DNA of 64,000 nt from a phage: the sequence record PZ445447.1. One strand, written 5' to 3'. A program made the translations under genes and the position numbers. Every line of letters starts with the position of its first letter. Position 1 is the stretch's first letter. The notes below the pieces were generated by a model. It worked only from the letters and a program-made list of their open reading frames with translations, was not told where the DNA came from and did not search any database. Of this stretch, positions 6,811-60,821 are shown piece after piece.

Positions 6811-6845
6811 TATTTTAAGTTATCAGATTGCCAGAGATCAGGAGG

Positions 6846-7300: not shown

Positions 7301-7414
7301 AATTTCTATATGGGAATATTTTAGTGGATACTATTTTATAGGAAATTGTTACGGAGGGTAATTAGCGTGCTAATTAAATTTATTAAATGCGAGGAGTTCT
7401 CATTTAGAATTTTG

Positions 7415-7745
7415 AATGATAATCATTCTCGTTTGCAGAATAACGGGCAGGCCCGGTGATTGTCTCCCGGCCCCTACTGCCCCGGCTTGTTATTATAGTA
7501 ACACACAGGACAAAGAAAGCAAGAAGTTTTTGCATAAATTTTTAGACGATAATGATAATCGTTCTCATTTCATGCAGCGCCCATCCCCGGTGGTTGTCTC
7601 CCCCGTCACCGGTGCCTGCCGTCCTTTCGATAGGTATATTTTGCCACCTGGCGGGGCCGCTGTCAACACTTTTCAAAAAAAAAAAAATTTCTAACCTGAT
7701 GCGCTGACCGCTGCAACCTGGCGGGGCCAGCCTGGCAGGGCCTAA
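7415..7745. repeat. GC-rich motif repeats (non-coding)
   Basis: gataatc(a/g)ttctc(g/a)ttt...gcag twice; ccggtgrttgtctccc twice; cctggcggggcc twice; A13 tract at about 7670. Confidence 0.5.
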
Positions 7746-7830
7746 CTGACCAGGTAGGAGAGAATGAAGGCTTGCAAACCTGGTGGGCCTATGCTATAGG
7801 ATAGGTAACAATTGAAGAGGAGGTACAAAA

Positions 7831-8007
7831 ATGGAAGGTAATATGATCCCCCTGGAAAATGTAGCTATTAATGACGCTGAGGCTATCGCCCTGGTTGAAA
7901 AGGCTATGGCGGGAGCGTTGGAACATAAAGAAGAGTACGAAAAAATGGTGGTTAACCTGGCAGGGGCGGCGGCTGGAGAATTCTACCCAAAAAATAATTT
8001 TAACTAA
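7831..8007 (+). CDS. small hypothetical protein (58 aa)
   Basis: ATG 7831 preceded by gaagaggagg RBS; below the ORF-track length cutoff. Confidence 0.4.
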   Translation: MEGNMIPLENVAINDAEAIALVEKAMAGALEHKEEYEKMVVNLAGAAAGEFYPKNNFN

Positions 8008-8092
8008 TGGTTGACAGCTCGGACAGTTCTTGTTATTCTTATCCTCGCAAGGTGAACAACACCACACCAATTAACAGAGAGGATAAAAAATC

Positions 8093-8290
8093 ATGAACGC
8101 CTACGGAATTAAAGTACGTCGCAACACTCGCCAGGTGGTCACCAATCAAGTGATTTGCCGGGTGGATGTAACCATCAACAACGGGCAAGGCCTTTATAAA
8201 TTTCGTCGCGGTCATAGCTATACCCTGCAACAGCTTAACCGTTGCGCCCTGACAAAAGGTCAGATCAACCACTGGTTTAATAAAAAATAA
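8093..8290 (+). CDS. hypothetical protein
   Basis: ORF with agaggataaaaaatc RBS; upstream TTGACA at about 8011. Confidence 0.5.
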   Translation: MNAYGIKVRRNTRQVVTNQVICRVDVTINNGQGLYKFRRGHSYTLQQLNRCALTKGQINHWFNKK

Positions 8291-8353
8291 TGTTGACATA
8301 TGGTCTGACACAAAATACACTGAAATCACAAAAGACACTAAGAGGATAAAATC

Positions 8354-8752
8354 ATGAAAACCACTACCTTTAATTTTGATAATGCGGACTTTTCTTTTTC
8401 TGATGTCAAGAACTGCCGCCGTGATCGTGGATTTTACAAGGCTTATAATCTGGTGGGCCTGGACGATGACAATAATTTGCACGAAGTAGCTGAGATCCGG
8501 TATTATGCCGCCGCCAGTGGTAACACTCACTACTGCGTGTTTTGGATTCACGACAACAAGAACAATAAGTACGGTTATACTGGCGGCAAGGCGAGCGGTC
8601 ACGGTTACGATAAAGCTAACGCAGCACTTGAGAGCGCATTAAATGCTATGGGGATCACTGCCGACGGCTGGATCTACGAAGAAGAGTTTTTGTCGGCACT
8701 TGCTGACCACCTGGGCTATAAAAAGCACATTGTGACATGCGCCCACGAATAA
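8354..8752 (+). CDS. hypothetical protein
   Basis: ORF with taagaggataaaatc RBS; upstream TTGACA at about 8294. Confidence 0.55.
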   Translation: MKTTTFNFDNADFSFSDVKNCRRDRGFYKAYNLVGLDDDNNLHEVAEIRYYAAASGNTHYCVFWIHDNKNNKYGYTGGKASGHGYDKANAALESALNAMGITADGWIYEEEFLSALADHLGYKKHIVTCAHE

Positions 8753-8755
8753 AAA

Positions 8756-8817
8756 TCATTGACACGCTGCAAAATTTAAGTAAACTAGACACAAAAGGCG
8801 GGAATGTTTCCCGCCAG
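8756..8817 (+). promoter_or_regulatory. promoter plus 5' stem-loop cassette
   Basis: TTGACA 8757, -10-like taaact, then hairpin ggcgggaa-tgtt-tcccgcc before the RBS of the next gene. Confidence 0.5.
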
Positions 8818-8835
8818 CACAAAGGAAAAAAGATC

Positions 8836-9231
8836 ATGAATAAGAACGTACGCCGCATCATGAACGAACTGGCAAACGATGAAAAAATTATTGACATGCA
8901 TTTAGTCAACATTTGCCGCCGTTGTGTAACATATAACAACCGCGCCGCAAAAGCGCGTGAGATGAACGCAAAAGGCACCTTAAAGCCCTTTCAGGTGGTT
9001 GTAAAATCTATAACCAGTGCAGCAGGCCAGGCGCATGACCACAACAACGGGAGCACTAATATTGATCCGTCTTACGTAATGAAACGGATCCGGACTTGCA
9101 AGAATAAAGAGCAGGTGTATAATGTCATAGACTGGTTGGATTCTATGGGCGATGTGGTTTACAATAGGTTTTCTGCAGCTATCGAGATCCAGCTTGACAG
9201 GTTGGACGGTAAAGTACTGAAAACTTACTAA
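8836..9231 (+). CDS. hypothetical protein
   Basis: ATG 8836 after aaaggaaaaaagatc; in frame with longer track ORF. Confidence 0.55.
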   Translation: MNKNVRRIMNELANDEKIIDMHLVNICRRCVTYNNRAAKAREMNAKGTLKPFQVVVKSITSAAGQAHDHNNGSTNIDPSYVMKRIRTCKNKEQVYNVIDWLDSMGDVVYNRFSAAIEIQLDRLDGKVLKTY

Positions 9232-9280
9232 GATTATTTTTAGATGGCCTTGACTTCAGGGCCATCAATAAAGTAAACTA
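9232..9280 (+). repeat. repeated terminator/promoter stem-loop cassette (copy 1 of 3)
   Basis: gattatttttagatggccTTGACTtcagggccatcaataaagtaaact; inverted repeat gatggcc/ggccatc encloses a -35-like TTGACT; near-identical copies at 9863 and 13603. Confidence 0.55.
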
Positions 9281-9311
9281 ATCCCAGTTAAGCGAAAAAG
9301 GAGGCTTGAAG

Positions 9312-9431
9312 ATGAGCACTGCACGCCAACACACAAAGGTAACGATTATCGTTTGCATCATTGGTTACATCCTGGCGCAAATGTTGATGGGTAGCGCCAA
9401 TGATTTCGCAAAATTTTTCTTAGACTTTTAA
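9312..9431 (+). CDS. small hydrophobic peptide (39 aa)
   Basis: ATG after aaaaaggaggc RBS; hydrophobic core IIVCIIGYILAQMLM; below track cutoff. Confidence 0.3.
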   Translation: MSTARQHTKVTIIVCIIGYILAQMLMGSANDFAKFFLDF

Positions 9432-9459
9432 TTGACAAGCTAACTTAAATCAGTATAAT
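9432..9459 (+). promoter_or_regulatory. sigma70-type promoter
   Basis: TTGACA (9432) - 16 nt - TATAAT (9454). Confidence 0.6.
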
Positions 9460-9511
9460 ACTAAGCACATAAACGGGAAAACTTCCCAGAACACCAAAAG
9501 GAGAAAACATT

Positions 9512-9862
9512 ATGAATACTTCCATCACTATGACCGCCGAAGAAAAAGCCCTGCAGATCGCCGCTCTGAAAAAACAGATTGCAGAACTTGAAGACAAGAT
9601 CGACAATTTTGAAATCGACGAAGACAAGTACGACGATAAATATGATGAATGGTTAGACGAGATCTACGGCGAAATTATGATCGGAAACATCTCTTTTCTT
9701 CCGTCGCGTATCCTCAAGGAGCTAGATCCTATCGCTTACCGCTGCGGATTTAGCGACTACATCGACAGCCTGGATATTGAGGACGATGAAGAATACCAGG
9801 AATTACAGACAGAGTTAGAAGAAGCAAAAGAAGAGCTTGCAGAACTGGAAGAAAACGAGTAA
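9512..9862 (+). CDS. acidic coiled-coil protein
   Basis: aaaaggagaaaacatt RBS; D/E-rich heptad-like sequence. Confidence 0.55.
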   Translation: MNTSITMTAEEKALQIAALKKQIAELEDKIDNFEIDEDKYDDKYDEWLDEIYGEIMIGNISFLPSRILKELDPIAYRCGFSDYIDSLDIEDDEEYQELQTELEEAKEELAELEENE

Positions 9863-9910
9863 GATTATTTTTAGATGGCCTTGACTCCAGGGCCATCAAT
9901 AAAGTAAACT
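9863..9910 (+). repeat. repeated terminator/promoter stem-loop cassette (copy 2 of 3)
   Basis: gattatttttagatggccttgactccagggccatcaataaagtaaact directly after the stop of the upstream gene. Confidence 0.55.
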
Positions 9911-9951
9911 TTATACTGTTAACACTGAACTAATGCATAGGAGTTAAAACC

Positions 9952-10197
9952 ATGGCAGCACTAATCACCAAATATTATGCCCCTACCAACACCAAAAGCG
10001 CCCGTATCATGGTAAAAGGATTCGGACGTAAAAAGGTGTACACCTGGGATTATGCCTTAGACACGGAAGACAACTACACCAACGCGATGACCGATTTTAT
10101 TAATGATCTGAACACGCGGATCTTGACAAATTATAAAATTACCGATATTGCCTATATAGGGGAAGGCGGGATCTGTTTTGTCGGTATCGTCAAATAA
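9952..10197 (+). CDS. hypothetical protein
   Basis: ORF with taggagttaaaacc RBS (same RBS string recurs at 14551). Confidence 0.55.
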   Translation: MAALITKYYAPTNTKSARIMVKGFGRKKVYTWDYALDTEDNYTNAMTDFINDLNTRILTNYKITDIAYIGEGGICFVGIVK

Positions 10198-10272
10198 GCT
10201 GTTTTTTCGGTGGTCCTGGTAGCAGGGCCATCTATAAAGATAGTTTATCAATACAATGAAAGGAGAAAGTAC

Positions 10273-10626
10273 ATGATCAGCGGGGCAAGTTTTATTATTG
10301 GCGCTATTGCTACGGCTTTAATTGTAAACAAGATCCAATCTAAAAACGAAAAAGATAGCAACGCCCTTACAGAATACCCGTTTTGGGTATTCAACGACAA
10401 TGAAGACTATATTATCAAGTACAAGAATGAGAAGGGCGACCAGGTAACACCGCGACCGATCCCGGCTTACAAGATGCAAGAAACACTATACCGCCTAAAG
10501 GCTGGAGGCGCAAAAATCGTAGACTTTTGGGGATACGATCACACAGATCAGGAAGTTATAAAGCGCCGTATCCGGGCTATTCAGGCCAATATTGAAGTTA
10601 GCAAGGGGGGAATATATGAAGATTAA
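10273..10626 (+). CDS. membrane-anchored hypothetical protein
   Basis: ATG 10273 after gaaaggagaaagtac; N-terminal TM helix ISGASFIIGAIATALIV. Confidence 0.5.
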   Translation: MISGASFIIGAIATALIVNKIQSKNEKDSNALTEYPFWVFNDNEDYIIKYKNEKGDQVTPRPIPAYKMQETLYRLKAGGAKIVDFWGYDHTDQEVIKRRIRAIQANIEVSKGGIYED

Positions 10627-10813
10627 TTTTGAGAAGATTGTAAAGCGATCTCATGCTTCCGAAGAGCTGCCGGAACGCCGCCAGCGCAACAATAAACTGA
10701 ATAAGCCAAAAAGATTTGGGAAGATCTGGCGGAATCATTATGATCGCAAATTACCGGGCCTGCTTTTGGAACGTGAACGACAGGCGGAACGATACCGCCA
10801 CAAAGGCAAATAA
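10616..10813 (+). CDS. basic hypothetical protein
   Basis: ATG 10616 after aagggggg; Arg/Lys-rich. Confidence 0.4.
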   Translation: MKINFEKIVKRSHASEELPERRQRNNKLNKPKRFGKIWRNHYDRKLPGLLLERERQAERYRHKGK

Positions 10814-10821
10814 CAACCAAC

Positions 10822-10850
10822 GCCCCGCCATTGTGCGGGGCTTTTTATTT
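10822..10850 (+). terminator. rho-independent terminator
   Basis: hairpin ccccgc-cattgt-gcgggg followed by ctttttattt. Confidence 0.65.
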
Positions 10851-10984
10851 CTATCCTACAAATAGCGCCCCTGGTTGGCCCTGTAAGCGCCAAAAAGGCC
10901 CCACCTATGCAATCGCCCCCCTTTAACCTGAAAACATCGCTTAGGGCCGTTTTATGGCGTTAAAAATATCATTGACAGTGATTT

Positions 10985-11012
10985 TATTTAAAGCTTGACA
11001 TCTTAAACAGGT
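10985..11012 (+). promoter_or_regulatory. sigma70-type promoter
   Basis: TTGACA (10985) - 16 nt - TATACT (11007). Confidence 0.55.
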
Positions 11013-11054
11013 TAGCTATACTAACCACATCAAAGAGAGAAAGGAGTAAACGCC

Positions 11055-11315
11055 ATGCGTAAATTAAAAAATTTTGATAAAGTTGATGTTGTCCTGAATA
11101 ATTTTTACTACTGCAACAACAAGGCCATTTGGTGGCGTGATAGTTCCACCGATAAAGTCAAGGCGCGCTTTCTCCAGGGGCACTGGCAAGGCCGCCCAGT
11201 GATTAAAATCATGGGGCAATTGGTAGCGTTTAAAAATTGCCGCCGTGTTGATGACGTTGAAGAGATCTTGAATATTTTACGCCACAATAATTTAAAAAAT
11301 AGTGTTGACAAGTAA
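11055..11315 (+). CDS. hypothetical protein
   Basis: ORF with gagaaaggagtaaacgcc RBS. Confidence 0.55.
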   Translation: MRKLKNFDKVDVVLNNFYYCNNKAIWWRDSSTDKVKARFLQGHWQGRPVIKIMGQLVAFKNCRRVDDVEEILNILRHNNLKNSVDK

Positions 11316-11389
11316 ATCTCAATAAGTATACTTAAGCACACAGGCGGGAAGTTTTCCCGCCACTAACAAAGAAAATAGGAGAAAATATC

Positions 11390-12013
11390 ATGACCACCGT
11401 TAACATTACCACAGGTTGCAATTTATCTTTCGACGTGCTGACCGACGAACAAAAAGAAAAAGCTATTGAAATGGTCCGCGAAAGAGAAGAACACAGCGGA
11501 GAGGATTTTTTCGCAGAAAGTGTAATTGAATATTATAAAGAACAAGTTTTTCCAGAGTACGGCCTTGAAGATACCGATGTACATTGGTCCGGCTTTTGGT
11601 GTCAAGGCGATGGCGCGTCAATTAGTGCTGAAAATGTAGACTTAGAGAAATTCTTGCGTAAAGTCAAGGCCCTGACCAAGTTCCGATCAATTCGTCACTT
11701 GTTCGGCACAATGCACGATGGCGAACTATCAGCCAGTGTTGAACGCGACAAGTACAGCCATTACAGCCATGAAAACACTGTAAGCGGATATATTGATACT
11801 ACCTGGCTAGATCTGACCGCAAAACAAGAAAATAAAGTAGAAGATCTGGAAGAGCTGATCACCGAGACGGTACGGGAGCTATCCCGCAAGGTTTATGTAG
11901 ACCTGGAGGAGGCCTATCTTGAACAGTTTACTACCGAAAACCTGATCGGCCTTATTGAAGCCAATGATTGGCGGTTTGATGTGGATGAATATGGAGAAAT
12001 GAGTTTTTCATAA
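11390..12013 (+). CDS. hypothetical protein
   Basis: 207 aa; aataggagaaaatatc RBS; upstream TTGACA (11301) and hairpin gcgggaagttttcccgcc. Confidence 0.6.
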   Translation: MTTVNITTGCNLSFDVLTDEQKEKAIEMVREREEHSGEDFFAESVIEYYKEQVFPEYGLEDTDVHWSGFWCQGDGASISAENVDLEKFLRKVKALTKFRSIRHLFGTMHDGELSASVERDKYSHYSHENTVSGYIDTTWLDLTAKQENKVEDLEELITETVRELSRKVYVDLEEAYLEQFTTENLIGLIEANDWRFDVDEYGEMSFS

Positions 12014-12104
12014 ATAAAGTGTTGCAATAATCTAAAAACCTGCTATATTAAAACTTAAGGGGGCGAGATGACTTGCCCCCACACAAAACAAAGAGGAAAA
12101 CATC

Positions 12105-12485
12105 ATGAAAAACACTACTAAAGCTATTGACACCGTTATGTTTAACCTGGTTACATTCCGTGAAGATATGAAAGATCTTCCACGTGAAACAGTGTGCGAC
12201 CATATCGAAAACTATCGCAAACTAATCAAAGAGTTGCCTTTAAAACGTGACCAGTACGCGGCTAACGCTATGCTTAACGCCATGATCAAGAAAATGATTC
12301 AGTGCGATTTGACTTTAGCTTATGATTATGCAGGTGGTCGTTTTGCAGTATACAATCAGCCCGTGCCTGGTATGAGCACCACAGAAGAATTGCACGCGTT
12401 AAATCTAAAACAAGACGTATGGGATAACATGCCCCGCGTGGTGGTGTGGGCAGAAAGCGGAAAGATTTACGGCGATAATTTTTAA
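12105..12485 (+). CDS. hypothetical protein
   Basis: ORF with aagaggaaaacatc RBS; upstream hairpin gggggcgagatgacttgccccc. Confidence 0.55.
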   Translation: MKNTTKAIDTVMFNLVTFREDMKDLPRETVCDHIENYRKLIKELPLKRDQYAANAMLNAMIKKMIQCDLTLAYDYAGGRFAVYNQPVPGMSTTEELHALNLKQDVWDNMPRVVVWAESGKIYGDNF

Positions 12486-12494
12486 TCAGGTAAC

Positions 12495-12522
12495 AGGCGG
12501 CATATTTGCCGCCTTATTGTTA
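12495..12522 (+). terminator. putative rho-independent terminator
   Basis: hairpin aggcggca-tatt-tgccgcct followed by T-rich tail. Confidence 0.5.
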
Positions 12523-12549
12523 AACAGAACTGCAAAAGAGGTACATAGA

Positions 12550-12921
12550 ATGGAATTTATTATTTTGGCTGTAGTAGTTGCCTTGTTCAACGCCTGGATC
12601 GCTGGCAAGATGGGTAGATCCGCTTTTCTATGGTTTGTTATATCTATTTTCCTGGGAGTGGTTGCAACTATTGTATTGGTTATCCTTGCAATTGTTGACA
12701 AGGGGAATAATAGAAAGGGTAAAGTATTTTCAGACCTGTACGACGCTCAAACGTTTGTCAACGCCTATTATAGTGATCTTCCAGTCTCCCTACGTTGCAG
12801 CCTTGCACAACAGGTTTTCGATGAAGCTAAAACCAGAGATCACGCCCATGAGATTTGTTTAACTGAGGCGGATCGCCTATTTGAGAGGAATAGAAAATAT
12901 GTGGACCAGCCGTTTAAATAA
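12550..12921 (+). CDS. membrane protein (two TM helices)
   Basis: ATG 12550 after aaagaggtacataga; two hydrophobic helices in first 50 aa. Confidence 0.5.
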   Translation: MEFIILAVVVALFNAWIAGKMGRSAFLWFVISIFLGVVATIVLVILAIVDKGNNRKGKVFSDLYDAQTFVNAYYSDLPVSLRCSLAQQVFDEAKTRDHAHEICLTEADRLFERNRKYVDQPFK

Positions 12922-13399
12922 TGCCACGTTAATTAACCCCTTTAGTGAAGATTTGAAGCCAGCCGCCTGGCGGGATGGATTCAATAACGAAAGCTTTATT
13001 TTCAGGCCTGATCTTAAGGAATTTTATAACAATGGATCGAACAACGACAGAGATAATTTTTCTTGTAATGTGCGTGGTGATAATACTCCTGGGGGCCATT
13101 GCAAACCACGTCACTGCTAACAGGAGGAAAGGGGGAGACGATGACACCCAAGGATAAGCCCCGCACCGATAAGGCGCGCCGTGTTATGGTATGGCTTGAG
13201 ATCATCGCCCTTGAAATATTGTTAGGCGTAGGGATGTATTTTATCGCTGTAAGTAACTGATAACGGCCCCGATCCCTGGGGCCTAACTTTTCAAATTTTT
13301 TCTCCCTGAGTGTTGCAATCCGATCCAGAATATGGATAATAACAATCAACGGGGAGACACTCCCCACCGCATAGACAAAGTTCCAAAAGGAGAAACAAA

Positions 13400-13600
13400 A
13401 TGAGCAACAATATCCGCGTTATTAACTTCAAAAAAGAAGAAAAAATTGCCGTGCTGATTGACGGTCAAGAAATCTTTAAAGGTGATTATGAAGATCATCA
13501 AACGGCGATTAGTATCACTCGCGTGATTGGTTACCATAATTTTTACCCTCAAGGCGCTGAGGCAGCAGTAAAACGAATTAAAGAGATTGTAGGCCTGTAA
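13400..13600 (+). CDS. hypothetical protein
   Basis: ORF with aaaaggagaaacaaa RBS. Confidence 0.55.
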   Translation: MSNNIRVINFKKEEKIAVLIDGQEIFKGDYEDHQTAISITRVIGYHNFYPQGAEAAVKRIKEIVGL

Positions 13601-13602
13601 AA

Positions 13603-13650
13603 TTTATTTTTAGATGGCCTTGACTCCAGGGCCATCAATAAAGTAAATTT
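13603..13650 (+). repeat. repeated terminator/promoter stem-loop cassette (copy 3 of 3)
   Basis: aatttatttttagatggccttgactccagggccatcaataaagtaaattt directly after the upstream stop. Confidence 0.55.
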
Positions 13651-13691
13651 AAACCCTGTTAAAATAATCAGTGCAAAAAGGAGTAATGATC

Positions 13692-13991
13692 ATGTTTATC
13701 CAGGCTAATAATCTTTATTTCTTTGATGGTCAGATCGTAGACGGCGTGGAGGTGGAAATCACCGGGTGCCCTGGCGGTCAGGTTATGACTTTTCGGAATA
13801 ATGCCTTTGATGATTCTCATATCGTTATGAGAATGGAAGTTAGTAAGCTGGATGACAAGAAAACACTTATCGACTATTCCGTCAAAGATCATCCAGACTA
13901 CCACATGATCTATGGTGATTTGTGCATTGTTGACCGTGACAAGGTGGGCGGCATTGTGATCGCTATTGTGAACGATGTTTTCTCAAACTAA
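13692..13991 (+). CDS. hypothetical protein
   Basis: ATG 13692 about 10 nt after aaaaaggag RBS. Confidence 0.5.
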   Translation: MFIQANNLYFFDGQIVDGVEVEITGCPGGQVMTFRNNAFDDSHIVMRMEVSKLDDKKTLIDYSVKDHPDYHMIYGDLCIVDRDKVGGIVIAIVNDVFSN

Positions 13992-14008
13992 TTTCAGCAG
14001 GTGATTTT

Positions 14009-14359
14009 ATGAAAGTAAAACTATATTACCTTAATGAGCTTAACCCCCTTGCCCAGGTCCGCGCCCTGGCTAATACCTTGATTTGTGAGAAATCTGTATA
14101 TTGTGTTGAGCTTAACGCCATGCGTGAACGTCTCAAAGGTGGTTACTTTGACATCCATGCTGCAATCAACGGCCTGAATATGGAATTTATCCGCTTACGT
14201 AACAGCCGCCAGAATCTGGCAAGAATGGAACAAGATCCGGCCCACCTTCGTAAGCTGGTTATTGAAAATCATCTGATGTTTAATGCCGATGGTGATTATT
14301 ACCATTTTCACCGTAAACGCTGGTACCGTAGCGGCAATATAGGAAAGAATGCAAAATAA
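14009..14359 (+). CDS. hypothetical protein
   Basis: ORF with gcaggtgatttt RBS. Confidence 0.55.
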   Translation: MKVKLYYLNELNPLAQVRALANTLICEKSVYCVELNAMRERLKGGYFDIHAAINGLNMEFIRLRNSRQNLARMEQDPAHLRKLVIENHLMFNADGDYYHFHRKRWYRSGNIGKNAK

Positions 14360-14394
14360 GGCCCCTGGCAGGGCCTGCAGCGATATAATCACAT

Positions 14395-14428
14395 AAAGGC
14401 TATGCGGTTGCATAGCCTTTATTATTTT
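14395..14428 (+). terminator. putative rho-independent terminator
   Basis: hairpin aaaggctatgc-ggtt-gcatagccttt followed by attatttt. Confidence 0.55.
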
Positions 14429-14565
14429 GGCGTTACAGCGGCCCCCAAGGCGCTTAAAAAATTTTTAAAGAAGTACTTGCATCAAGTCCTACAATATGGA
14501 TAATAAAGGGTGTCGGGGGGCGGGGAGGCCTCCAATCATTAACCGGATAGATAGGAGTTAAAACC

Positions 14566-14850
14566 ATGGCTATTGTTACCGTTGGCGATGTAATAGAAAT
14601 GGAAGCCAAATACTTAAAAGCTGGTATGCATATCATACGGAATGATCAAGAATTGTTATTAACCATGGTTGAATATAATCCCGGTCAGGATTATCCAAGC
14701 ATTGACTACTTTTTCCAGTATGTTGATGAAGAATTAAAAGAGGATGAGGCTTATCAGGGTGAATTTTGTAATTTCTTTTGCTCTGATGAGGTTGTAAAAG
14801 TTATCTATCAACCTGGCGTACCTTTCCCGCTGCACGCTATCAATAAATAA
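14566..14850 (+). CDS. hypothetical protein
   Basis: ORF with ataggagttaaaacc RBS. Confidence 0.55.
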   Translation: MAIVTVGDVIEMEAKYLKAGMHIIRNDQELLLTMVEYNPGQDYPSIDYFFQYVDEELKEDEAYQGEFCNFFCSDEVVKVIYQPGVPFPLHAINK

Positions 14851-14906
14851 ACCTGGCGGGGCCGAAAAGGCCCCCCAATTATGAAAATAAAGAGAGGCAA
14901 ATCATC

Positions 14907-15140
14907 ATGATGGAACAAATTAAACGCGCCGAGGCTATTAATGGCAACGTGATCTATTTTGTCAGCAAAAACGAAAAAGGCGTACCCTATGCGGCTGTAA
15001 TAGTACAGCCTGACGGCGATTATTGGTGCACTGTGTACGGCGCTTATTCTTTTGGGCGTCCAGTGCATGATAAAATTTTGAAAGTAGCGAACCCTACCGG
15101 GAAAAATATTACAGCAGAAAAATTTTTTGAAAATAGTTGA
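14907..15140 (+). CDS. hypothetical protein
   Basis: ORF with aagagaggcaaatcatc RBS. Confidence 0.55.
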   Translation: MMEQIKRAEAINGNVIYFVSKNEKGVPYAAVIVQPDGDYWCTVYGAYSFGRPVHDKILKVANPTGKNITAEKFFENS

Positions 15141-15215
15141 CATGACCTTATAAGACTGTAGAATATAAATCAAAGGGGGCAACAAGCCCCACCAACCACA
15201 AAGAGGATAAAAATC

Positions 15216-15395
15216 ATGGCTATTATTGCAAAGACTGAGATCGTAGGCTTAGATTCTATTCTCCTCGCATATGAGGAAGCTATAGAAATGTATGTGGTTT
15301 CCTATGGTGAATATATCCGTGAATATAAATCTATTGATCTAGCTTTTGAATGTTATATTCGCCAGGTCAATAAAGCATATGATGATTATCGTTAA
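15216..15395 (+). CDS. small hypothetical protein (59 aa)
   Basis: ATG after aagaggataaaaatc RBS; upstream TTGACA at about 15137 and hairpin gggggcaacaagcccc. Confidence 0.4.
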   Translation: MAIIAKTEIVGLDSILLAYEEAIEMYVVSYGEYIREYKSIDLAFECYIRQVNKAYDDYR

Positions 15396-15813
15396 AATAG
15401 TTTGACAACAGTCAACAATCTGGTAAAGTGTACTACATAGCGCGGGAATACTTCCCGCCATTAATGAGGGTAATTTAATGAAAACTTTCAACGCAACAGC
15501 CTCGACAATTGGTTATATTATTACAGTACAGGCCGTGGATCTGGTAGCAGCAGCAAACAAGATTAAAAAGATGATTCCGCCAGGTAGTGAATTTTCCGTT
15601 TGGGAAGTAAAATAAATCTTGACAATAGTTTATTACTTGATAGACTGTATTTCGTAGGGCGGGGCAATAAGGCAACGCCCATTAATGAGGGTAGAATCAT
15701 GTTAGAGAAAATTTTCACGGTTGTAGTAGTTGGCCTGGCATTATCGGTTGGAGTGGTTGCAACTATGGCTAACATGATCCTATCTTCCCACGGTATCGGT
15801 TAAGGTGAATCAA

Positions 15814-16029
15814 ATGATCACGAATAAGACAGGTAAAACAGAATTTTTACGCGGCTTGCAAATAGGTAAGCCTGAGATCTGGCATTGCACTAAAACACCA
15901 CGTGACGAAATGAAAGACTTCACCGCCACGCTGCAACGGGTAAAGATATCCATCACGCAGAAAAAGGCCTTGATAGTGGTGGAAGGTGAGATCCCTCAAA
16001 CCGTTGTTATAGTTGAGCGTACAGCATAG
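15814..16029 (+). CDS. hypothetical protein
   Basis: ATG 15814 after aaggtga RBS (track ORF begins at an upstream GTG). Confidence 0.45.
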   Translation: MITNKTGKTEFLRGLQIGKPEIWHCTKTPRDEMKDFTATLQRVKISITQKKALIVVEGEIPQTVVIVERTA

Positions 16030-16120
16030 TTTAATTTATAGCGATACCTGAAAATTAACCAATAAATCATAAACAGGCGGTTACCGCCGCCTTAAACGTA
16101 GCAGAAAGAGGCTAGACACA

Positions 16121-16405
16121 ATGAAAAAGATGATCGCAGTAGTTGCCCTGGTTGTTGGACTTAATGCGCCTGTAATGGCTAAAGAGCTGGCAAAAGAGGT
16201 TAATCTAACGGATATCCATGCCGTCAATCAAATCGGGGTTACTTATCGCTTATGCCTTGCCGCTAAAACTTTTAATGACGGCACAACAGAGTACTACGGA
16301 TTCGAGGGTATCCGGTGCGGTGAGCTTGCTCGCGACCTTAAGGAAGATCCAGACCTGGAAGATCTGCCCATCACCGTAAACGGTAAAGCTTACGTAAACC
16401 GTTAA
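16121..16405 (+). CDS. secreted/periplasmic hypothetical protein
   Basis: N-terminal signal peptide MKKMIAVVALVVGLNAPVMA; agaaagaggctagacaca RBS. Confidence 0.6.
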   Translation: MKKMIAVVALVVGLNAPVMAKELAKEVNLTDIHAVNQIGVTYRLCLAAKTFNDGTTEYYGFEGIRCGELARDLKEDPDLEDLPITVNGKAYVNR

Positions 16406-16554
16406 CCGTGAAAAAGATAATCATTACCTTGGGGATTGTGGCGGGATCGCTGGCGCTCTTTCCCCTTATGGTTAGATATGTGCTGATCAGTATTGTCCTG
16501 GTGGTCAGTGATCTACTAGAAACGGTTGGCACCTTGTTTTAAAGAGCGATAAAA

Positions 16555-16746
16555 ATGAATGTTGAACAAGTTAGAAAGGTATTGGCGGTACTGCGTTATC
16601 ATAATCATAGAAAGGTCATAGACGATCCTGATTATGTTGATTCAAGTCTGGAAGAGGATACACTACAAGCCATAAGTAACATGCAAGAATTGCTAAAGCG
16701 CATGACAGAGAAAAACCGACCGGACTACATAGGCGAAAAAATATAA
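16555..16746 (+). CDS. hypothetical protein
   Basis: ORF in array; weak RBS. Confidence 0.45.
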   Translation: MNVEQVRKVLAVLRYHNHRKVIDDPDYVDSSLEEDTLQAISNMQELLKRMTEKNRPDYIGEKI

Positions 16747-16957
16747 TCCTTATTAACTAGAAAACAGGGCTTGCAATGGTCCTGTTTTTTGTTATACTTA
16801 TTACACGGCAGGCACCTGGCGACGGGGGGAGACAATCACCGGGCCTGCCTGTCATATAAGAACTATAAAAACCGTTGACATCTGCCAGGTGGTGGGGTAA
16901 CATTTATCTTGAAGGGGCAAAAGTGCCCACACAACAACCAGAAGAGAGGAAAACATT

Positions 16958-17230
16958 ATGTCAAGCTGGATTAATCAAGAAGTCGAATCACGTTTTAATG
17001 CTATTTGGGATCTCATCGAAAAAGAGGACGGAACATCAAGCCCTTATCTCAATAATCTTGAATTCCATTTCGTGGAAGCGATGAACGCAGAACATGATCA
17101 CGAAGGTGGTGCGGATGAGTTCGCTAAAGGGTATGGCTTCAACAATGCCAACGAAATGATCGAGGCGGTTGTACTCCAGGCTGAGGAAGATTATCAATTA
17201 AAAACGCTTGAATTCTGCCGCCGTAAGTAA
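16958..17230 (+). CDS. acidic hypothetical protein
   Basis: ORF with gaagagaggaaaacatt RBS; preceded by TTGACA (16877) and hairpins. Confidence 0.55.
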   Translation: MSSWINQEVESRFNAIWDLIEKEDGTSSPYLNNLEFHFVEAMNAEHDHEGGADEFAKGYGFNNANEMIEAVVLQAEEDYQLKTLEFCRRK

Positions 17231-17290
17231 TAAGATAATGACACGGGCCAAAAGGCCCACTAATCAGAACCACACAAAGAGAGAAAGAAA

Positions 17291-17509
17291 ATGACAACCC
17301 GTAAAATTAAAGTTGTTTGCATTGAATCGACTGGGGGCGCTTTTGTAGTTGGTCAGGAATATAATGCGGTTTTAATGGGTACGGATTGGAAGGTTAAAGG
17401 CCTTAATGGTTACGAGTACGGCACTACTTGCGGCTTGCGTGGTCGAATCGGATACGTGAGTTTAGACAACAAAGAAAAATTTGTTTTCGACACCGTTGTG
17501 AGTAAATAG
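17291..17509 (+). CDS. hypothetical protein
   Basis: ORF with aaagagagaaagaaa RBS. Confidence 0.55.
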   Translation: MTTRKIKVVCIESTGGAFVVGQEYNAVLMGTDWKVKGLNGYEYGTTCGLRGRIGYVSLDNKEKFVFDTVVSK

Positions 17510-17587
17510 CATGAATTGCTAAAGACTGATCTGCGAACTGCTGTATTATCAACTAATCAAAACGAACCGCATAAAGAGGAAAACATC

Positions 17588-17851
17588 ATGAAACGTCTGG
17601 ATCAGCTTAAATTAGTTCAGTACATGGCCTACAGAATTCTTGAAGTCCAAAAAGGTAGCAAAAAAGAGGTTTGCGAGAAAGCTTATAAGATCTTTACTCG
17701 CAAAAAAGATGACTGGATGCTACGCCAGACCAAAAAATCCGATATCCTGGGGTACCTGGAAGAAGAGATCCGGCTTGAAGAACAAGAAGAGATCCGCCGC
17801 AGTGAGGCAGATTATCAGGCAGCTTGGGAAAACTGGATGAGCAACAAATAA
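17588..17851 (+). CDS. hypothetical protein
   Basis: ATG 17588 after cataaagaggaaaacatc RBS. Confidence 0.5.
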   Translation: MKRLDQLKLVQYMAYRILEVQKGSKKEVCEKAYKIFTRKKDDWMLRQTKKSDILGYLEEEIRLEEQEEIRRSEADYQAAWENWMSNK

Positions 17852-17995
17852 TACAACAAGTTACGGTCAGGGGGGTAATAAAGCCCCTTGATCACATAAA
17901 AATTATGCTATCCCTGGTTGACAGGGATCGGCAGTTTTGCTATATTCTTTTTTGAAGGGGAGTTGTAAGAAAATTAACTAAGAGGTAAAAACACC

Positions 17996-18415
17996 ATGAA
18001 CATTAAATCTAATAATCCGGCATATAGCTTTGATAACGCTTTTTGTCACGGTCCGGCGGCGAAAGGATTCGAAATCGATGGTAAACTAATTATTGTCAAT
18101 GTTGACGGGGAAGAGGTTGCAGTATATCCGGTGGCAGACGTTAAAAGCCGTCTACAATGCCGCATGGATGTTACCGCCTATCAGCTTGATCCGGTCCGCA
18201 TAGTTGCCCTGGTCCTGGAAGAAGAAATTAAAGCCATGCACCATAGCAACAGATTTATTGGTGACGCGCAGGATAATATGAAAGTATGCCGCCATAAAGT
18301 TAATGAAGTGCTTAAAGAGTACGGCTATAAAGATCTTATGATCAAACGCGAGGAAAAATTCCGCTACCGTAACGACCTGGCAAATCGGATTTTTGAAATA
18401 TACGAATCATTATAA
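17996..18415 (+). CDS. hypothetical protein
   Basis: 139 aa; ctaagaggtaaaaacacc RBS; promoter TTGACA (about 17920) - 17 nt - TATATT with the -35 inside hairpin ccctggTTGACAggga. Confidence 0.6.
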   Translation: MNIKSNNPAYSFDNAFCHGPAAKGFEIDGKLIIVNVDGEEVAVYPVADVKSRLQCRMDVTAYQLDPVRIVALVLEEEIKAMHHSNRFIGDAQDNMKVCRHKVNEVLKEYGYKDLMIKREEKFRYRNDLANRIFEIYESL

Positions 18416-18434
18416 TTTTTTAACTGAATTATCA

Positions 18435-18459
18435 AGGGGCTTAGGCCCCTTTCTTTTTG
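18435..18459 (+). terminator. rho-independent terminator
   Basis: hairpin aggggc-ttag-gcccct followed by ttctttttg. Confidence 0.6.
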
Positions 18460-20927
18460 TCTGCTCTTCCCCCTACCATAAACGGCCCTACCTGGCAAGT
18501 GGAATAATTGACGAGCCATCAATCCCACACACTGTACAAACATACATATAAAATAACTATTGCATAATTTTTCATTGTGTGGTAGCAGGGCCATTTTTAC
18601 ACGTTTTTCCTTCCAAAATTGCACGTAATGCAGCATTTGCACAAAATTTAACCTGATGCATATATTCAATAGCTTGTCAACAACTAAAAATCTTTATAAG
18701 TCATACACTTACATAACTACAAAAGCGTTTTCTACGTGAAAAATCGAGTATAACTATAGCCGCCAGATCTCAGAATTTACGTACGCTCGCCATTCTATAG
18801 CCTGCTAAGCATTTATTCCAACCATAGAATAACGGAATAGTCAATACCTGCATAAAATAATTATTCGTGTAAACTGCATAACATAAATCGGCCCAGGTGT
18901 CAACATTTTTCGTAAACAGTCTGGAATTGTCACGTTAGGTTACCATAAGCAGAGAAATCTTCAGTCGTCTAATGTTTACTGTACGTTACTATATTAACTG
19001 AAATCATTAGATGACTAATAGAAAGATAAGAAATAATTAACAATACAATTATTTTATCTGTAACAATAAGGCAACTATGCAAACGAATGGCATGGCGCGA
19101 CGGAGTCGCGACATAATATAAAAGCAGTAACCATCACCCCCGTGATAGTTTGTCTGCAAACTATTAATCAGATCATAGTTGCCTTGTATTTAGTTAATCA
19201 TGACATAACAAGCAAGGCAACTATAGATCTGCTAATAGTTGCCCTGCTTTTATATTATGTCATGCTAATTATAATCAGTGCGATTATTGTCATGTATAAT
19301 TATTGTCATGCAAACGAATGGCATGGCTGATTATCGGTGTGTAAACAGTCAATCATGTAAATGGTTAGCATGTGAACAATCAGGAATGTAAACAATCCAG
19401 TGTGTAAACTAATAGGTGTGTAAAAGTGTCATGTTGTGTCAGTTAGGTCACATTATGTCAGACAAGTTTTTCTCCTCTTTGTCAAGTGCTGCATGAAAAA
19501 TTTACAAGCTTGTATGGTAGCATTTTTGCGGCCCTGTTTACATTCAGGAGTGTATGTATAATCCTTGGTGTGTGGGCGTTTAGACGTCTGGACGGTAAGA
19601 AGTCTGCAGGTTAATATCTAATCTATCGGCTGCTAACTATATCCCACACAAATAGTAAGAAATATAATTGTTATGTGCGTAAACAGTAACCCATGTTATC
19701 AATCCCTGTATGTATCGCCAGTGGTGCGCATAATGGGTATTATGTTAAATTGCCCGTAATGATAAAGGTTCTCACAATGATAGGTATTCTCATTCACCCT
19801 CACAAAATAGATTGCAAATGTTGTGCCACTGTGTGAACGGCCTCACCTATTAATTTGCCTCACTGCCTCGATATTTGAGAATTATTATAAGAATGAGAAG
19901 TATTCCCATTTCGTCCGCCTGGCAGCACTCCAGTCGCTACGGCTCATGACAGGGCAGCACTCCTGTAGGTCAGGTCAAAATCGTGGTAGAATTGGGCCTG
20001 TTCAGATATTTCTGGCTGACTCTTCAGGTCTGTGTGGGAAAAGCCAACCTCTCCGGCGGGGCAGGGGGTCATGACGGGAAAATTGCAGGTCAATTAAAAA
20101 ATTTACGTGGTGTATGAAGCGCTCTTCAGGTAAGGCAGGTATTAGAGGATGAAACCCTCTTCAGGCAATGATATTTGTGGGTGTGATATTTGCTGGAAAG
20201 CCAGATATGACGGGACTCCCGGCGGGGATGGGGTAGTACAGACAGGGAAAATATGGGGATGTAGTTGGGTAAATTGATCAGGCAGGTAGAGTATGGATTA
20301 TGTTACAGGTATGTTAAATATGGAGGTTGAATATCTGTAAGATTTGTGTGTAAAATCAAAGACTTAAGTGGTGTTGTGGTATTTTCTATAAATAATTCAA
20401 GTTTAATAGGTAATATTTGTCTCTATCCACTTTGTGTGGTAAACAGATTCAGATGAAATTGGTTTACAAGTGTATACATAATATACAAATTAAAGATACA
20501 AGAAACCCCCCTCCCCTTCGGCTACCATTCACCTTTTCCTCTGACTGGTACTTAAACACTTATTCAGACTCTTCAGGTTATCACCCATATATCATATGGC
20601 AGTGACTGGTGTCCTCCGGCCCCTCTTTCGTCACCCGTCCGCTTCGCCATGCTAATGCCATAGCCAATGGTTCGGTTGTTCACCCTGTTCACTCAGGTGT
20701 ATCTCCATACCCCTTCAAACCGAAGAGAACAGAAAACCCGAATTACTCGGTAAAAGAAAAGAGAAGAACTTAATTTTATCAAGATAGGCAAGAATGTCAA
20801 GGCATGACTGCTCACTAAACAAGCAAACAGTCATGTGTGGGAGGTAAGTGATTGTGGTTGTAGGAAATTTAGTTGAAAGATGTGTTATAGGTGCTTCCAG
20901 CACTTTAGCCGGGTAGCTAATTGTGTG
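18460..20927. repeat. repeat-rich non-coding zone between converging gene blocks
   Basis: no convincing ORF; gcaaacgaatggcatggc at 19079 and 19310; ggcaactat in direct and inverted copies around 19067-19240; tgtaaaca-type motif four times in 19340-19420; ctcttcagg four or more times in 19990-20570. Confidence 0.6.
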
Positions 20928-60817: not shown

Positions 60818-60821
60818 AATT

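Follow-up and report, generated by a model that had tools for sequence, protein, structure and literature searches.

Promoter-hairpin cassettes as probable portable joints in the early-gene block of the Vequintavirus MaxBurger

The window analysed here is a stretch of 64,000 nucleotides of phage DNA (PZ445447.1), in which positions 7800-18460 are 100% identical to record positions 82170-92830 of Escherichia phage MaxBurger (Bas54, MZ501093.1, Vequintavirus), an rV5-like and not a T4-type coliphage, the T4-type phages being those with which a preliminary description of this DNA had compared the cassettes. The match and its annotation identify 7800..18460 as an early-type block of small genes, bas54_0103 to 0134, which adjoins the genome end and runs up to the terminal-repeat region (record 92,785-95,298; window 18415-20928). 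Thirty-two coding sequences are annotated in it, all on the + strand, as are the features located below; since bas54_0130 overlies a promoter and a hairpin and is therefore doubtful, the block holds 31-32 genes and not about 40, as first estimated. The products are 34-207 aa long and, as had been stated for most of them, shorter than 140 aa in 30 of 31 cases. That they are all of unknown function is nearly correct: a Pfam search gave no family above cut-off for 30 of the 31 proteins, the exception being bas54_0111 (T7 gp1.1 family), and the ten largest proteins, which were those tested, all belong to PHROGs of unknown function. A hydrophobic segment is predicted in seven of the 31 (0107, 0110, 0115, 0117, 0125, 0127 and 0128) and is signal-peptide-like in one; some products had earlier been described as secreted or membrane-bound. 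In a published transposon screen of MaxBurger, 27 of the 32 block genes were non-essential in K-12 and several were conditionally important (depleted) in clinical E. coli isolates; bas54_0108, which encodes an acidic protein of 116 aa (9512..9862) and is variably present and horizontally shared among the phages compared, is reported to be depleted in CFE303, a clinical isolate. The suggestion of a reservoir of host-takeover or anti-defence functions agrees with this dispensability and conditional importance, but no block gene has so far been linked to a defence system.

Matches to TTGACA-N16-18-TATAAT in at least 10 of 12 positions number 13 on the + (coding) strand and 0 on the - strand; Markov shuffles gave 2.25 +/- 1.38 (maximum 6). 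Of the 13, 11 stand directly upstream of a start codon and six were annotated independently in rV5. Near-consensus promoters had been claimed before most genes, and this excess bears out the promoters but not the "most": counting matches of at least 9/12 together with the repeat element described below, approximately 17 of 31 genes, about half, have a promoter of their own, and the remaining genes are grouped in short operons. A conservation footprint, in which variable columns were counted for 11 cassettes in up to 16 phages, gave 0/66 for the -35, 8/66 for the -10, 60/180 for the spacer, 9/68 for the ribosome-binding site, and 21/92 for the hairpin stems versus 12/25 for their loops. The promoter hexamers are thus far above chance, strand-specific and under purifying selection, and the hairpin stems are conserved while the loops vary.

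Ten promoters have a GC hairpin that starts 9-15 nt past the -10, with fold z-scores of -1.4 to -5.8 in nine cases and -0.3 in the G-rich one (14506). Such cassettes precede 0106 (TTGACA-16-TAAACT, 8759..8815), 0108 (consensus TTGACA-16-TATAAT, 9432..9487, P192 in rV5, with hairpin GGGAA-AAC-TTCCC at 9475-9487), 0113 (TTGACA-16-TATACT, 11305..11361), 0114 (TTGCAA-16-TATATT, 12022..12080, with a 9-bp hairpin of -18.4 kcal/mol, z -5.84), 0123 (TTGACA-16-TAGAAT, 15137..15190, GGGGC-AACAA-GCCCC), 0124 (TTGACA-16-TAAAGT, 15402..15458), 0125 (TTGACA-16-TAGACT, 15619..15681, GGGCG...CGCCC) and 0131 (TTGACA-17-TAACAT, 16875..16928, GGGCA-AAAG-TGCCC, P168 in rV5). A recurring gcgggaa/ttcccgc family, noticed earlier, is present at all three places, with loops of 3 and not 4 nt: GGCGGGAA-TGT-TTCCCGCC at 8797-8815 (-14.6 kcal/mol, z -3.65), GGCGGGAA-GTT-TTCCCGCC at 11343-11361 (z -4.45, where only the loop varies among relatives) and GCGGGAA-TAC-TTCCCGC at 15442-15458. 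The region before 0118 (13265..13365) combines a terminator-like hairpin (13265-13283), a promoter TTGCAA-16-GATAAT (13313-13340) and a hairpin GGGGAG-ACA-CTCCCC (13351-13365), and that before 0121 (14359..14533) two terminator-like hairpins (14359-14376 and 14393-14422) and a promoter TTGCAT-16-GATAAT (14477-14504) followed by a G-rich leader that folds no better than shuffles (z -0.32).

The promoters before 0104 (TTGACA-17-TATTCT, 8011..8039, P195B in rV5, its -35 invariant in 16 phages) and 0105 (TTGACA-17-TACACT, 8293..8321, P195A in rV5) have no hairpin, the one before 0112 has tandem -35 hexamers (10971 and 10995) with a -10 TATACT (10971..11022) and is an indel hot spot, and a hairpin (17865-17893) stands ahead of that of 0134 (17865..17946; TTGACA-17-TATATT at 17918-17946, P164 in rV5). 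Hairpins without a promoter are found in the 0114/0115 gap (12495..12514), before 0122 (GGGGCC-GAAAA-GGCCCC, 14858..14874) and before 0127 (16075..16092), and 0132 is preceded by a hairpin GGGCC-AAAA-GGCCC with a leader ACTAATCAGAAC... (17245..17290). An intrinsic terminator GCCCCGC-loop-GCGGGGC followed by TTTTTATTT (10822..10850) closes the 0106-0111 group; at 16758..16855 the loop of a terminator hairpin contains a -35 (TTGCAA-16-TATACT, 16771-16798), and a 45-nt GC-rich hairpin element comes next, with no gene behind; and AAGGGGC-TTAG-GCCCCTT with a T run (18434..18460) terminates the block.

A repeated element had been described as 48 bp long, located at 9232, 9863 and 13603 directly after stop codons, and built on a 7-bp inverted repeat, gatggcc/ggccatc. 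These three copies were confirmed and start inside the upstream stop codon, but the unit measures 53 nt, a fourth copy had been missed, and the real structure is an extended hairpin in which a 2x3 internal loop separates an outer stem of 7-12 bp from a 10-bp inner stem capped by a tetraloop. The copies lie at 9229..9281 (starting in the 0106 stop codon and embedding TTGACT-18-TAAACT), 9860..9912 (after 0108), 10195..10247 (diverged, 69% identity, without the -35) and 13599..13651 (after 0118); the first, second and fourth share 90-100% identity, with 0 such copies expected by chance. Covariance-model scores of the copies are 72-79 bits for the + strand and 31-42 for the - strand (76.6 against 40.4 for the 9229 copy; 72.3 at 10195 and 79.4 at 13599 on the + strand). 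Paired cells make up 98.4% of the alignment versus 36-57% when the partner is slid, and four pairs are altered on both sides, with a covariation score reached by 0 of 500 shuffles, although the independent events are few and the sequences closely related. The element is thus a four-copy structure whose support by covariation is confined to the sense strand.

It is possible, if rather doubtful, that this element acts purely as RNA, in RNase III-type processing, 3' stabilisation or inter-cistron attenuation, and that its likeness to a promoter is incidental. The 10195 copy, which lacks the -35, keeps the whole fold by compensatory changes that turn T-A into C-G and wobble into Watson-Crick pairs (-23.7 kcal/mol, z -4.13), the -10-like TAAACT belongs to the outer stem, where it covaries with the base adjoining the stop codon (G-C versus A-T), and G-U pairs make the fold sense-strand-specific; moreover, its two stems of 10 bp and 7-12 bp on either side of a 2x3 internal loop are reminiscent of the RNase III sites that separate the T7 early genes. 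A purely RNA function is harder to reconcile with the TTGAC of the loop, which is unchanged in all aligned three-copy sequences but one while the two adjacent loop bases take four or five states, and with TAAA(C/T)T, which lines up exactly with the -10 of a clear EmilieFrey promoter (TTGCAA-16-TAAACT) that has the usual hairpin behind it. The 18-nt spacing also suits a promoter, and PhagePromoter predicts one at the element in phage Gotham. By its predicted fold, the element is above all a conserved structured hairpin, the promoter being absent from one copy.

Gene content was compared with that of 13 related Vequintavirus phages, three additional loci from Vequintavirus and three phages belonging to a different subfamily. 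In this synteny-breakpoint check, set beforehand as a test, cassettes contain many of the joints at which genes were gained, lost or replaced, and the sequence shared at these joints is 12-50 nt long. In magaca and ime, 0107-0108 are missing and one 53-nt element remains in their place; the flanks share 51 nt at 98% identity, overlap by 49 nt at the deletion and score 49.5 (random 99th percentile, 14.5). Typing phage 14 and magaca, where 0124 is missing, carry a chimeric promoter derived from the 0124 and 0125 cassettes, and 0132 is absent from 9 of 13 phages, its leader having recombined with a similar leader at 17552-17587. The interval from 0123 to 0126 (15396..15810) is a gene-content hot spot with six arrangements among 14 phages; the 0124 cassette precedes 0125 in Mangalyan and a third gene in KKE7M, and two phages share about 85 identical nt of it in front of different genes. 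The cassettes at 9432..9487 and 15619..15681 each form the left end of a module shared with the Justusliebigvirus KKE7M, in which a module of promoter, 0108 and element replaces two EmilieFrey genes. Both crossovers of this inter-subfamily replacement, TTGACAAG(A/C)TAACT(A/T)AAATC in the -35/spacer and TAAA(C/T)T at the -10, fall inside shared promoter patches of 12-21 nt, the TAAACT of the 9860 copy aligning with the EmilieFrey -10. Modules shared with Phapecoctavirus and Justusliebigvirus are arranged in a different order, and their ends coincide with a -35, a hairpin, a ribosome-binding site or a stop codon.

Other events map to the same kinds of site: a 23-nt deletion between the tandem TTGACA hexamers before 0112 in four phages, a 542-nt, three-gene insertion at the first of these hexamers (10971) in MiataMamis, the left end of a replacement in NHEP1 at the -35 of the 0123 cassette (15137), a 345-nt insertion at the terminator-hairpin site 16758..16855 in four phages, and the deletion of 0134 between the hairpins 17865-17893 and 18434..18460 in rV5_ev146. 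The 542-nt and 345-nt insertions show no flank homology, though the first is located at a -35 and the second within a terminator hairpin. Gene-content changes unrelated to cassettes were a minority and plainly illegitimate, comprising the losses of 0120 and 0128, which are in-operon events with microhomology of at most 2-3 nt, and a 6-kb deletion in rV5_ev146 that used an 11-nt chance match.

Since joints within genes yield broken products, intergenic joints are also expected from selection alone. Nearly all intergenic DNA in the block is cassette, and because position cannot separate the two, the mechanism is argued solely from flank homology and chimeric cassettes. We regard it as unlikely that the block consists of ordinary early transcription units with cassettes alike through consensus convergence, in which illegitimate recombination gives the cassettes no special role and selection removes the joints inside genes. 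The 0120, 0128, 542-nt, 345-nt and 6-kb events, which score 7-12.5 against a random median of 8, would suit such an origin, as would intergenic windows that are barely more alike than random ones (median 9 versus 8; 95th percentile 15.5 versus 11). It does not account well for the 0107-0108 flanks, whose deleted form retains exactly one copy, nor for the chimeric promoters, the long identical cassette before different genes, the two KKE7M crossovers within promoter patches or the deletion spanning the tandem hexamers.

The promoter-proximal hairpins might instead terminate or attenuate transcription and so insulate each unit from the one upstream of it, as proposed for the promoter-early-stem-loop (PeSL) cassettes of T4-type phages; the stem-loop of a PeSL of RB49, when tested, cut reporter expression as a strong terminator does (PMC2839356). 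Terminators with T runs are present in the block (10822, 14393, 16758 and 18434), and T-rich runs on the opposite strand behind several leader hairpins (8815, 9488, 13369, 15190 and 16092) could stop antisense transcripts. On the sense strand, however, A/C-rich bases (e.g., AGCACAAAGG, ACTAACAAAG and ACACAAAACA) and no U tract follow the promoter-proximal hairpins in all ten cases, and an efficient terminator downstream of its own promoter would halt its own transcript too, which makes this role quite improbable. That the repeats are miniature mobile elements dependent on a dedicated enzyme (for example a homing endonuclease or REP-type transposase) is a very remote prospect: the 53-nt element recalls bacterial REP elements as a repeated imperfect palindrome after stop codons, and homing endonuclease genes occur elsewhere in these genomes, but the copies number only four and occupy fixed orthologous sites in 121 records, target-site duplications were not seen, annotation and protein searches found no recombinase or transposase gene in or near the block, and homology between copies explains all events seen.

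It is therefore likely that the promoter-hairpin cassettes of the rV5-like early block are portable joints, the PeSL scheme of T4-type phages in a Vequintavirus; the earlier proposal that PeSL-like cassettes provide homology for gene gain, loss and exchange is supported by the joints, the flank homology and the chimeric promoters. The literature searched contained no transcription data on the rV5-like phage group, so that start sites, hairpin function and processing are all inferred. The right-end early block consists of small, mostly dispensable genes with a compact regulatory cassette per gene or per few genes, ordered as stop codon, AT-rich stretch, putative host sigma-70 promoter, GC-rich hairpin about 10 nt past the -10, C/A-rich leader, strong ribosome-binding site and ATG. 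Host RNA polymerase would fire these promoters right after infection, and the hairpin, beginning 2-8 nt from the predicted start site, would form a 5'-terminal stem-loop that may shield the mRNA from RNase E. The 53-nt element, when read through from upstream, would form a stem of about 20 bp just past the stop codon that may cap the preceding message or process it as an RNase III site would, and three of its four copies may also drive transcription of the gene that follows. Since the same short stretches of sequence are found between unrelated genes, they could serve the phage's recombination system as portable joints, so that whole promoter-gene units may be deleted, inserted or swapped with their neighbours intact, within the genus and across subfamilies. 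This scheme has already been described in T4-type phages, and the Vequintavirus block would represent the same scheme in a different phage family; these data suggest a PeSL-type system, with predicted promoter and RNA activities, in a non-T4 phage.

The block at window 7800-18460 on the + strand is 100% identical to positions 82170-92830 of the record of MaxBurger (Bas54, MZ501093.1), an rV5-like coliphage of the genus Vequintavirus, and partial matches to it occur in 255 further phage records. The annotation of MZ501093.1 places 32 coding sequences in the block, bas54_0103 to 0134, all on the + strand and all labelled 'hypothetical' except for one 'putative holin'. The preliminary description had counted about 40 small genes, which is too many (31-32), and had stated that most of them encode fewer than 140 aa, which is borne out by 30 of the 31 proteins in a size range of 34-207 aa. 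Twenty-three records named 'Campylobacter phage' (MG0656xx series, host Campylobacter jejuni) share more than 90% identity with this E. coli Vequintavirus block, and their host label or sample purity looks doubtful.

Promoter-like sites of the TTGACA/TATAAT type with at least 10/12 matches number 13 on the + strand of the block and 0 on the - strand, against 2.25 +/- 1.38 in shuffled sequence. Over the whole window sigma-70 sites track the coding strand, lying on + to 18 kb, on - from 20 to 56 kb and then on + again. AT-rich runs, such as AAAATAG and TTATTTTTAG, are found upstream of the -35. Six of the sites in the block were annotated independently in rV5 (PMC3606486), and sigma-70 promoters have already been reported both in that phage (PMC3606486) and in Certrevirus early regions. 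With weaker matches included, about 17 of the 31 genes each have a separate promoter and the remainder belong to short operons; the promoter-like sites proposed earlier are real and strand-specific, but a near-consensus promoter in front of most genes was an overstatement. In a footprint count of variable columns, made on alignments of 11 cassettes with up to 16 relatives, variation touched 0/66 columns of the -35, 8/66 of the -10 and 9/68 of the Shine-Dalgarno sequence, compared with 60/180 in the spacer and 108/391 in the other parts of the leader. The low variation of the hexamers relative to the spacer indicates that they are under clear purifying selection. A literature search on the Vequintavirinae found no start-site or RNA-seq map, and we infer from the sequence that the predicted promoters are active.

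At 10 promoters a GC hairpin starts 9-15 nt past the -10. Nine of these ten promoter-proximal hairpins fold better than shuffled sequence (z -1.4 to -5.8), and their stems are more conserved than their loops (21/92 against 12/25 variable columns in the footprint count); a G-rich leader at 14506 folds no better than shuffled sequence. A second placement, with the hairpin overlapping the -35 and the spacer, is seen at 16758-16791 and in a repeated 53-nt element. The three hairpins of the form GGCGGGAA...TTCCCGCC had been located correctly, although their loops measure 3 nt and not 4 nt. In a tabulation of all 31 intergenic regions, the cassettes are bounded by the stop codon of the preceding gene and by the Shine-Dalgarno sequence and start codon of the next.

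A GC hairpin followed by a U tract, as in an intrinsic terminator, is present at 10822, 14393, 16758 and 18434, and weakly at 12495 and 13265. No U tract lies on the sense strand 3' of the ten promoter-proximal hairpins, and neither they nor the 53-nt element qualify as intrinsic terminators. The idea that the promoter-proximal hairpins act as sense-strand terminators was therefore rejected, and they are read as putative 5'-terminal stem-loops of new transcripts. Leaders of the ompA type, in which a stable hairpin within a few nucleotides of the 5' end is followed by an unstructured leader, stabilise the mRNA; the cassette hairpins resemble such 5'-terminal stem-loops, with 5' ends that are here predicted. 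A search of the 64-kb window against Rfam at the gathering score returned only tRNAs at 60.7-61.6 kb and no match in the block; at E up to 1, the interval 6800-21000 gave one weak chance match, to Clostridium-PBP, of 35.7 bits against a gathering score of 94.4. Six tRNA genes are clustered on the + strand at 60743-61552.

The synteny of the block was compared with that of 13 Vequintavirus relatives and three more loci, and many joints of gene content coincide with cassettes, as the preliminary description had led one to expect. Genes bas54_0107 and 0108 are missing in magaca and ime, in which exactly one 53-nt element is left; the flanks of this gene pair have 51 nt in common, with a flank score of 49.5, the random 99th percentile being 14.5. 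Gene 0124 is missing in O157 typing phage 14 and in magaca, and a chimeric promoter stands at the joint, its -35 side taken from the promoter of 0124 and its -10 and hairpin from that of 0125. The loss of 0132 in 9 of the 13 phages has its joint in two similar leaders, ACTAATCA(G/A)AAC...AAAGAG, and rV5_ev146 has lost 0134 between flanking GGGG...CCCCTT hairpins. The interval from 0123 to 0126 is a hot spot (15396-15810) with six gene arrangements, in which every gene has its own promoter and hairpin; in Mangalyan, 0125 is preceded by the cassette that MaxBurger has at 0124, essentially verbatim. The tandem TTGACA hexamers at 10971 and 10995 flank a deletion of 23 nt in four phages, MiataMamis carries a three-gene insertion of 542 nt at the first of these hexamers (10971), and in four phages a 345-nt insertion falls within the terminator/promoter hairpin at 16758-16791. 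Joints outside cassettes are those of the loss of 0120, which runs from its start codon to its last four codons, of the loss of 0128, and of a 6-kb deletion in rV5_ev146 at an 11-nt chance match. An apparent replacement at 11207-11356 in typing phage 14 was discarded, being a run of N that marks an assembly gap and no event. Elsewhere in the window, about 637 bp present in MaxBurger (2625-3261) are missing from ime and rV5_ev146, and the HeinrichReichert record has a homing endonuclease annotated near the counterpart of this interval.

Exchange also extends beyond the subfamily. Phages of the Stephanstirmvirinae carry single genes or small operons of the block at 74-95% identity and in another order, with segment boundaries that fall at a -35, a hairpin, a ribosome-binding site or a stop codon. 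In the Justusliebigvirus KKE7M, 436 nt made up of gene 0108 with its promoter and the 53-nt element stand in place of two genes of the related phage EmilieFrey. The left crossover lies in a patch common to all three phages, TTGACAAG(A/C)TAACT(A/T)AAATC, which comprises the -35 and spacer; on the right, the crossover maps to AGTAAA(C/T)T, in which the -10-like hexamer of the element is aligned to the -10 of a promoter of EmilieFrey (TTGCAA-16-TAAACT, followed by the usual hairpin). Both crossovers fall in promoter sequence and support the view that promoters may serve as recombination joints and that the 53-nt element may be used as a promoter. Together with the 51-nt common flanks and the chimeric promoter, these crossovers in promoter patches uphold the earlier proposal that the repeats provide homology for gene gain, loss and exchange.

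The element itself had been described as 48 bp long and present in three copies. Those copies are confirmed at 9229, 9860 and 13599, but the unit is 53 nt and a fourth, diverged copy at 10195-10247 had been overlooked, which is without the -35 and retains the entire fold. The element begins inside the stop codon of the upstream gene. Its fold has two stems, an outer one of 7-12 bp and an inner one of 10 bp capped by a tetraloop, which are separated by a 2x3 internal loop; the energy is -20 to -29 kcal/mol (z -3.5 to -4.4). From 17 phages 61 occurrences were collected, representing 33 distinct sequences, and 19 distinct ones were aligned; standard pairs occupy 98.4% of the pair cells, and shifting the partner by 1-3 columns lowers this to 36-57%. 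Two-sided changes are seen in 4 outer-stem pairs (G-C/A-U, U-A/C-G, A-U/U-A and U-A/G-U) and switches between wobble and Watson-Crick pairing in 3 inner-stem pairs. The covariation score was attained by 0/500 shuffles, the aligned sequences being close relatives that represent few independent events. A covariance model run over both strands of the 64-kb window found exactly four sites, which score 72-79 bits on the + strand and 31-42 bits on the - strand; this difference assigns the fold to the sense strand, and the four members exclude a dispersed set. TTGAC is invariant in all but one of the aligned sequences of the three-copy type, and two adjacent loop bases take 4 or 5 states, which would be the pattern expected of a -35 hexamer with a loosely constrained sixth position. 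The element occurs in 121 phage records, usually at three BLAST places in each, all of them Vequintavirus except for one Justusliebigvirus, and is labelled a predicted promoter in one public record. Loop variants common to copies 1 and 2 within some genomes give a hint, too weak to claim, of gene conversion between these copies.

A transposon-like unit can be dismissed, as the copies occupy fixed orthologous sites and come with no enzyme. The REP/BIME elements of enterobacteria are repeated imperfect palindromes after stop codons in operons, where they stabilise the upstream mRNA and form recombination hot spots; the 53-nt element is likewise an imperfect palindrome after a stop codon, but it has four copies instead of hundreds, no transposase and a phage setting. 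Similar in architecture and placement are the RNase III sites between the early genes of T7, intercistronic hairpins of about two helical turns with an internal loop, found right after the stop codon in early mRNA; after cleavage, the upstream message would retain a protective hairpin at its 3' end. The 53-nt element, known here from its sequence, has no sequence similarity to these sites and adds promoter-like hexamers. We regard it as possible, though rather doubtful, that the element has a dual use previously undescribed in Vequintavirus early operons, acting in DNA as a sigma-70 promoter with its -35 in the hairpin loop and in read-through RNA as a two-helix structure that is cleaved or bound in the manner of RNase III sites and sets the stability of the upstream message, and that, being repeated, it is also a portable joint, which carried the candidate host-range or anti-defence gene bas54_0108 between phage subfamilies. 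The one new detail is a four-copy 53-nt hairpin with covariation support and an apparent double role.

The preliminary description had likened the cassettes to the promoter-early stem-loops (PeSLs) of T4-type phages. In a PeSL, a strong early promoter of the sigma-70-like type, preceded by AT-rich sequence, is combined with a stem-loop that can take any of five positions relative to it; PeSLs sit between a stop codon and the next ribosome-binding site, mostly before genes of unknown function in variable regions, and carry the indel joints between close relatives (PMC2839356; PMC4122927). They are known from RB49/phi1, T4/PST and KVP40/nt-1 (Arbiol et al. 2010, PMC2839356; Comeau et al. 2014, PMC4122927), and in RB49/phi1 promoter activity, terminator activity and mini-circles have been shown (PMC2839356; PMC4122927). 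The same arrangement is found here: between a stop codon and the ribosome-binding site and ATG that follow it lie a strong sigma-70-like promoter with AT-rich upstream sequence and an adjacent stable GC stem-loop, whose several placements include one past the -10 and one overlapping the -35. The cassettes are concentrated in a block of small genes without known function that is variable: its content differs among the relatives examined, and 27/32 of its genes are non-essential. The indels and replacements that distinguish close relatives are joined within the motifs, with crossovers between -35, -10, stem-loop and ribosome-binding site, and leave single or chimeric motifs at 0107-0108, 0124, 0132, 15396-15810, the tandem -35 (10971/10995), 0134 in rV5_ev146 and KKE7M, but not in the losses of 0120 and 0128 and the one 6-kb deletion. 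The likeness accordingly extends to all sequence-level and comparative features, but not to the host phage, which is a Vequintavirus and not a T4-type myovirus; rV5 is without T4 late-transcription proteins (PMC3606486). A T4-type host is where the PeSL family was first described and not part of its working. Further differences are that the MaxBurger block lies at the physical genome end, that one motif type is a two-helix hairpin of 53 nt with covariation support and one promoter-less copy, and that exchange between two subfamilies is documented here. In a literature search on the Vequintavirinae no report of PeSL-type cassettes or of cassette-mediated shuffling was found. Judged by sequence and comparison, the block holds PeSL-type cassettes; the finding is real and the earlier reading holds. 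The morons of lambdoid phages, promoter-gene-terminator units added between older genes (PMC2839356), are likewise self-contained, dispensable transcription units between neighbours and often useful in some hosts only, but they are thought to arrive by illegitimate recombination with control sequences that are not the vehicle, whereas several joints here lie in shared control sequences.

The gene products had all been called unknown, some of them secreted or membrane-bound. No Pfam family was found above cut-off for 30 of the 31 block proteins, a hydrophobic segment is present in seven, several are strongly acidic, and the ten largest belong to PHROGs of unknown function; the exception is 0111 (10616-10813), a basic 65-aa protein of the T7 gene 1.1 family (Phage_1_1, E 2.3e-10, 41.2 bits against a cut-off of 21). 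Gene 1.1 of T7 is an early gene. A protein search with 0131, called 'RB49-like' in the rV5 record, gave T1-like and other phages and no T4-type phage among the matches listed; this search gave no shared gene to tie the cassettes to the RB49 PeSLs. In a transposon-insertion screen of Bas54, 27/32 block genes were non-essential in K-12, 0110 was essential, 0125 showed reduced fitness and 0103, 0130 and 0134 were intermediate (10.1101/2025.11.20.689424). The essential call, the sole one in the block, concerns a gene (10273-10626) with 9/31 TA sites hit that follows directly on the promoter-less 53-nt copy and encodes a 117-aa protein with an N-terminal hydrophobic segment. According to the methods text of the same preprint, bas54_0108 was depleted in the clinical isolate CFE303, and one resampling table gives significant depletion, with polar effects possible, of 0106, 0123, 0126, 0127, 0132, 0133 and 0134 (10.1101/2025.11.20.689424). 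This table, sheet Data S6 of supplement file 9 (10.1101/2025.11.20.689424), is titled K-12 vs CFE303, but its command line names sample 311 and its top genes, bas54_0063 and bas54_0140, are those linked to CFE311 in the preprint text; the table is therefore read as CFE311, and the labels of two conditional tables in that preprint may have been swapped. The suggestion that the block is a reservoir of host-takeover or anti-defence functions is plausible and partly backed by the non-essential genes and the depletion in clinical isolates, although no block gene was matched to a defence system.

A preprint on MaxBurger locates the terminal-repeat region, a physical DNA end, at record 92,785-95,298, which corresponds to window 18415-20928; the block thus reaches the genome end and its transcription is directed towards that end. 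This interval of about 2.5 kb is without annotated genes and separates convergent + and - gene blocks; it tolerated zero transposon insertions (another preprint), and short direct and inverted repeats lie at 19110-19261. On the other side of the block, the gene-poor interval 6800-7830 contains three 47-nt direct repeats (7112-7297), with more repeats at 7415 and 7551, and also a tract of 13 A (7677-7689). Of the small ORFs annotated over it, the transposon screen called bas54_0101 essential (0/11 TA sites hit) and gave bas54_0102 a strong fitness defect (5/15) (10.1101/2025.11.20.689424); the repeats look iteron-like, and the interval may be a replication origin or some other site that acts in cis, and not coding sequence. 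A GC-rich element of about 40-45 nt, ACGGCAGGCACC(T)GG(C/T)GAC(G)GGGGGAGACAA(T/C)CACCGGG..., has three copies, at 16805-16855 (+), 7586-7623 (-) and 7440-7468 (-), each closely preceded by a sigma-70-like promoter of the same strand and with no convincing ORF; it gave no Rfam match, and the copies could be small RNAs or protein-binding sites. The motif CCTGG(N1-3)GGGCC occurs six times on the + strand (7647, 7717, 7731, 7779, 14364 and 14852) and not on the - strand, and in JLBYU08 53 nt are deleted between the copies at 7642 and 7712.

Taken together, the use of promoter-plus-hairpin cassettes as recombination joints is probably not confined to T4-type phages; such cassettes also shape the early-gene block in rV5-like phages, where genes have moved between phage subfamilies, and the 53-nt element adds a small structured element with covariation support. 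Among the variably present units, bas54_0108 and the hot spot at 15396-15810 are the first candidates for host-specific or anti-defence functions. For rV5-like phages in therapeutic use a practical rule follows, namely that their early genes are cassette-bounded units which can be removed, swapped or inserted at defined joints.
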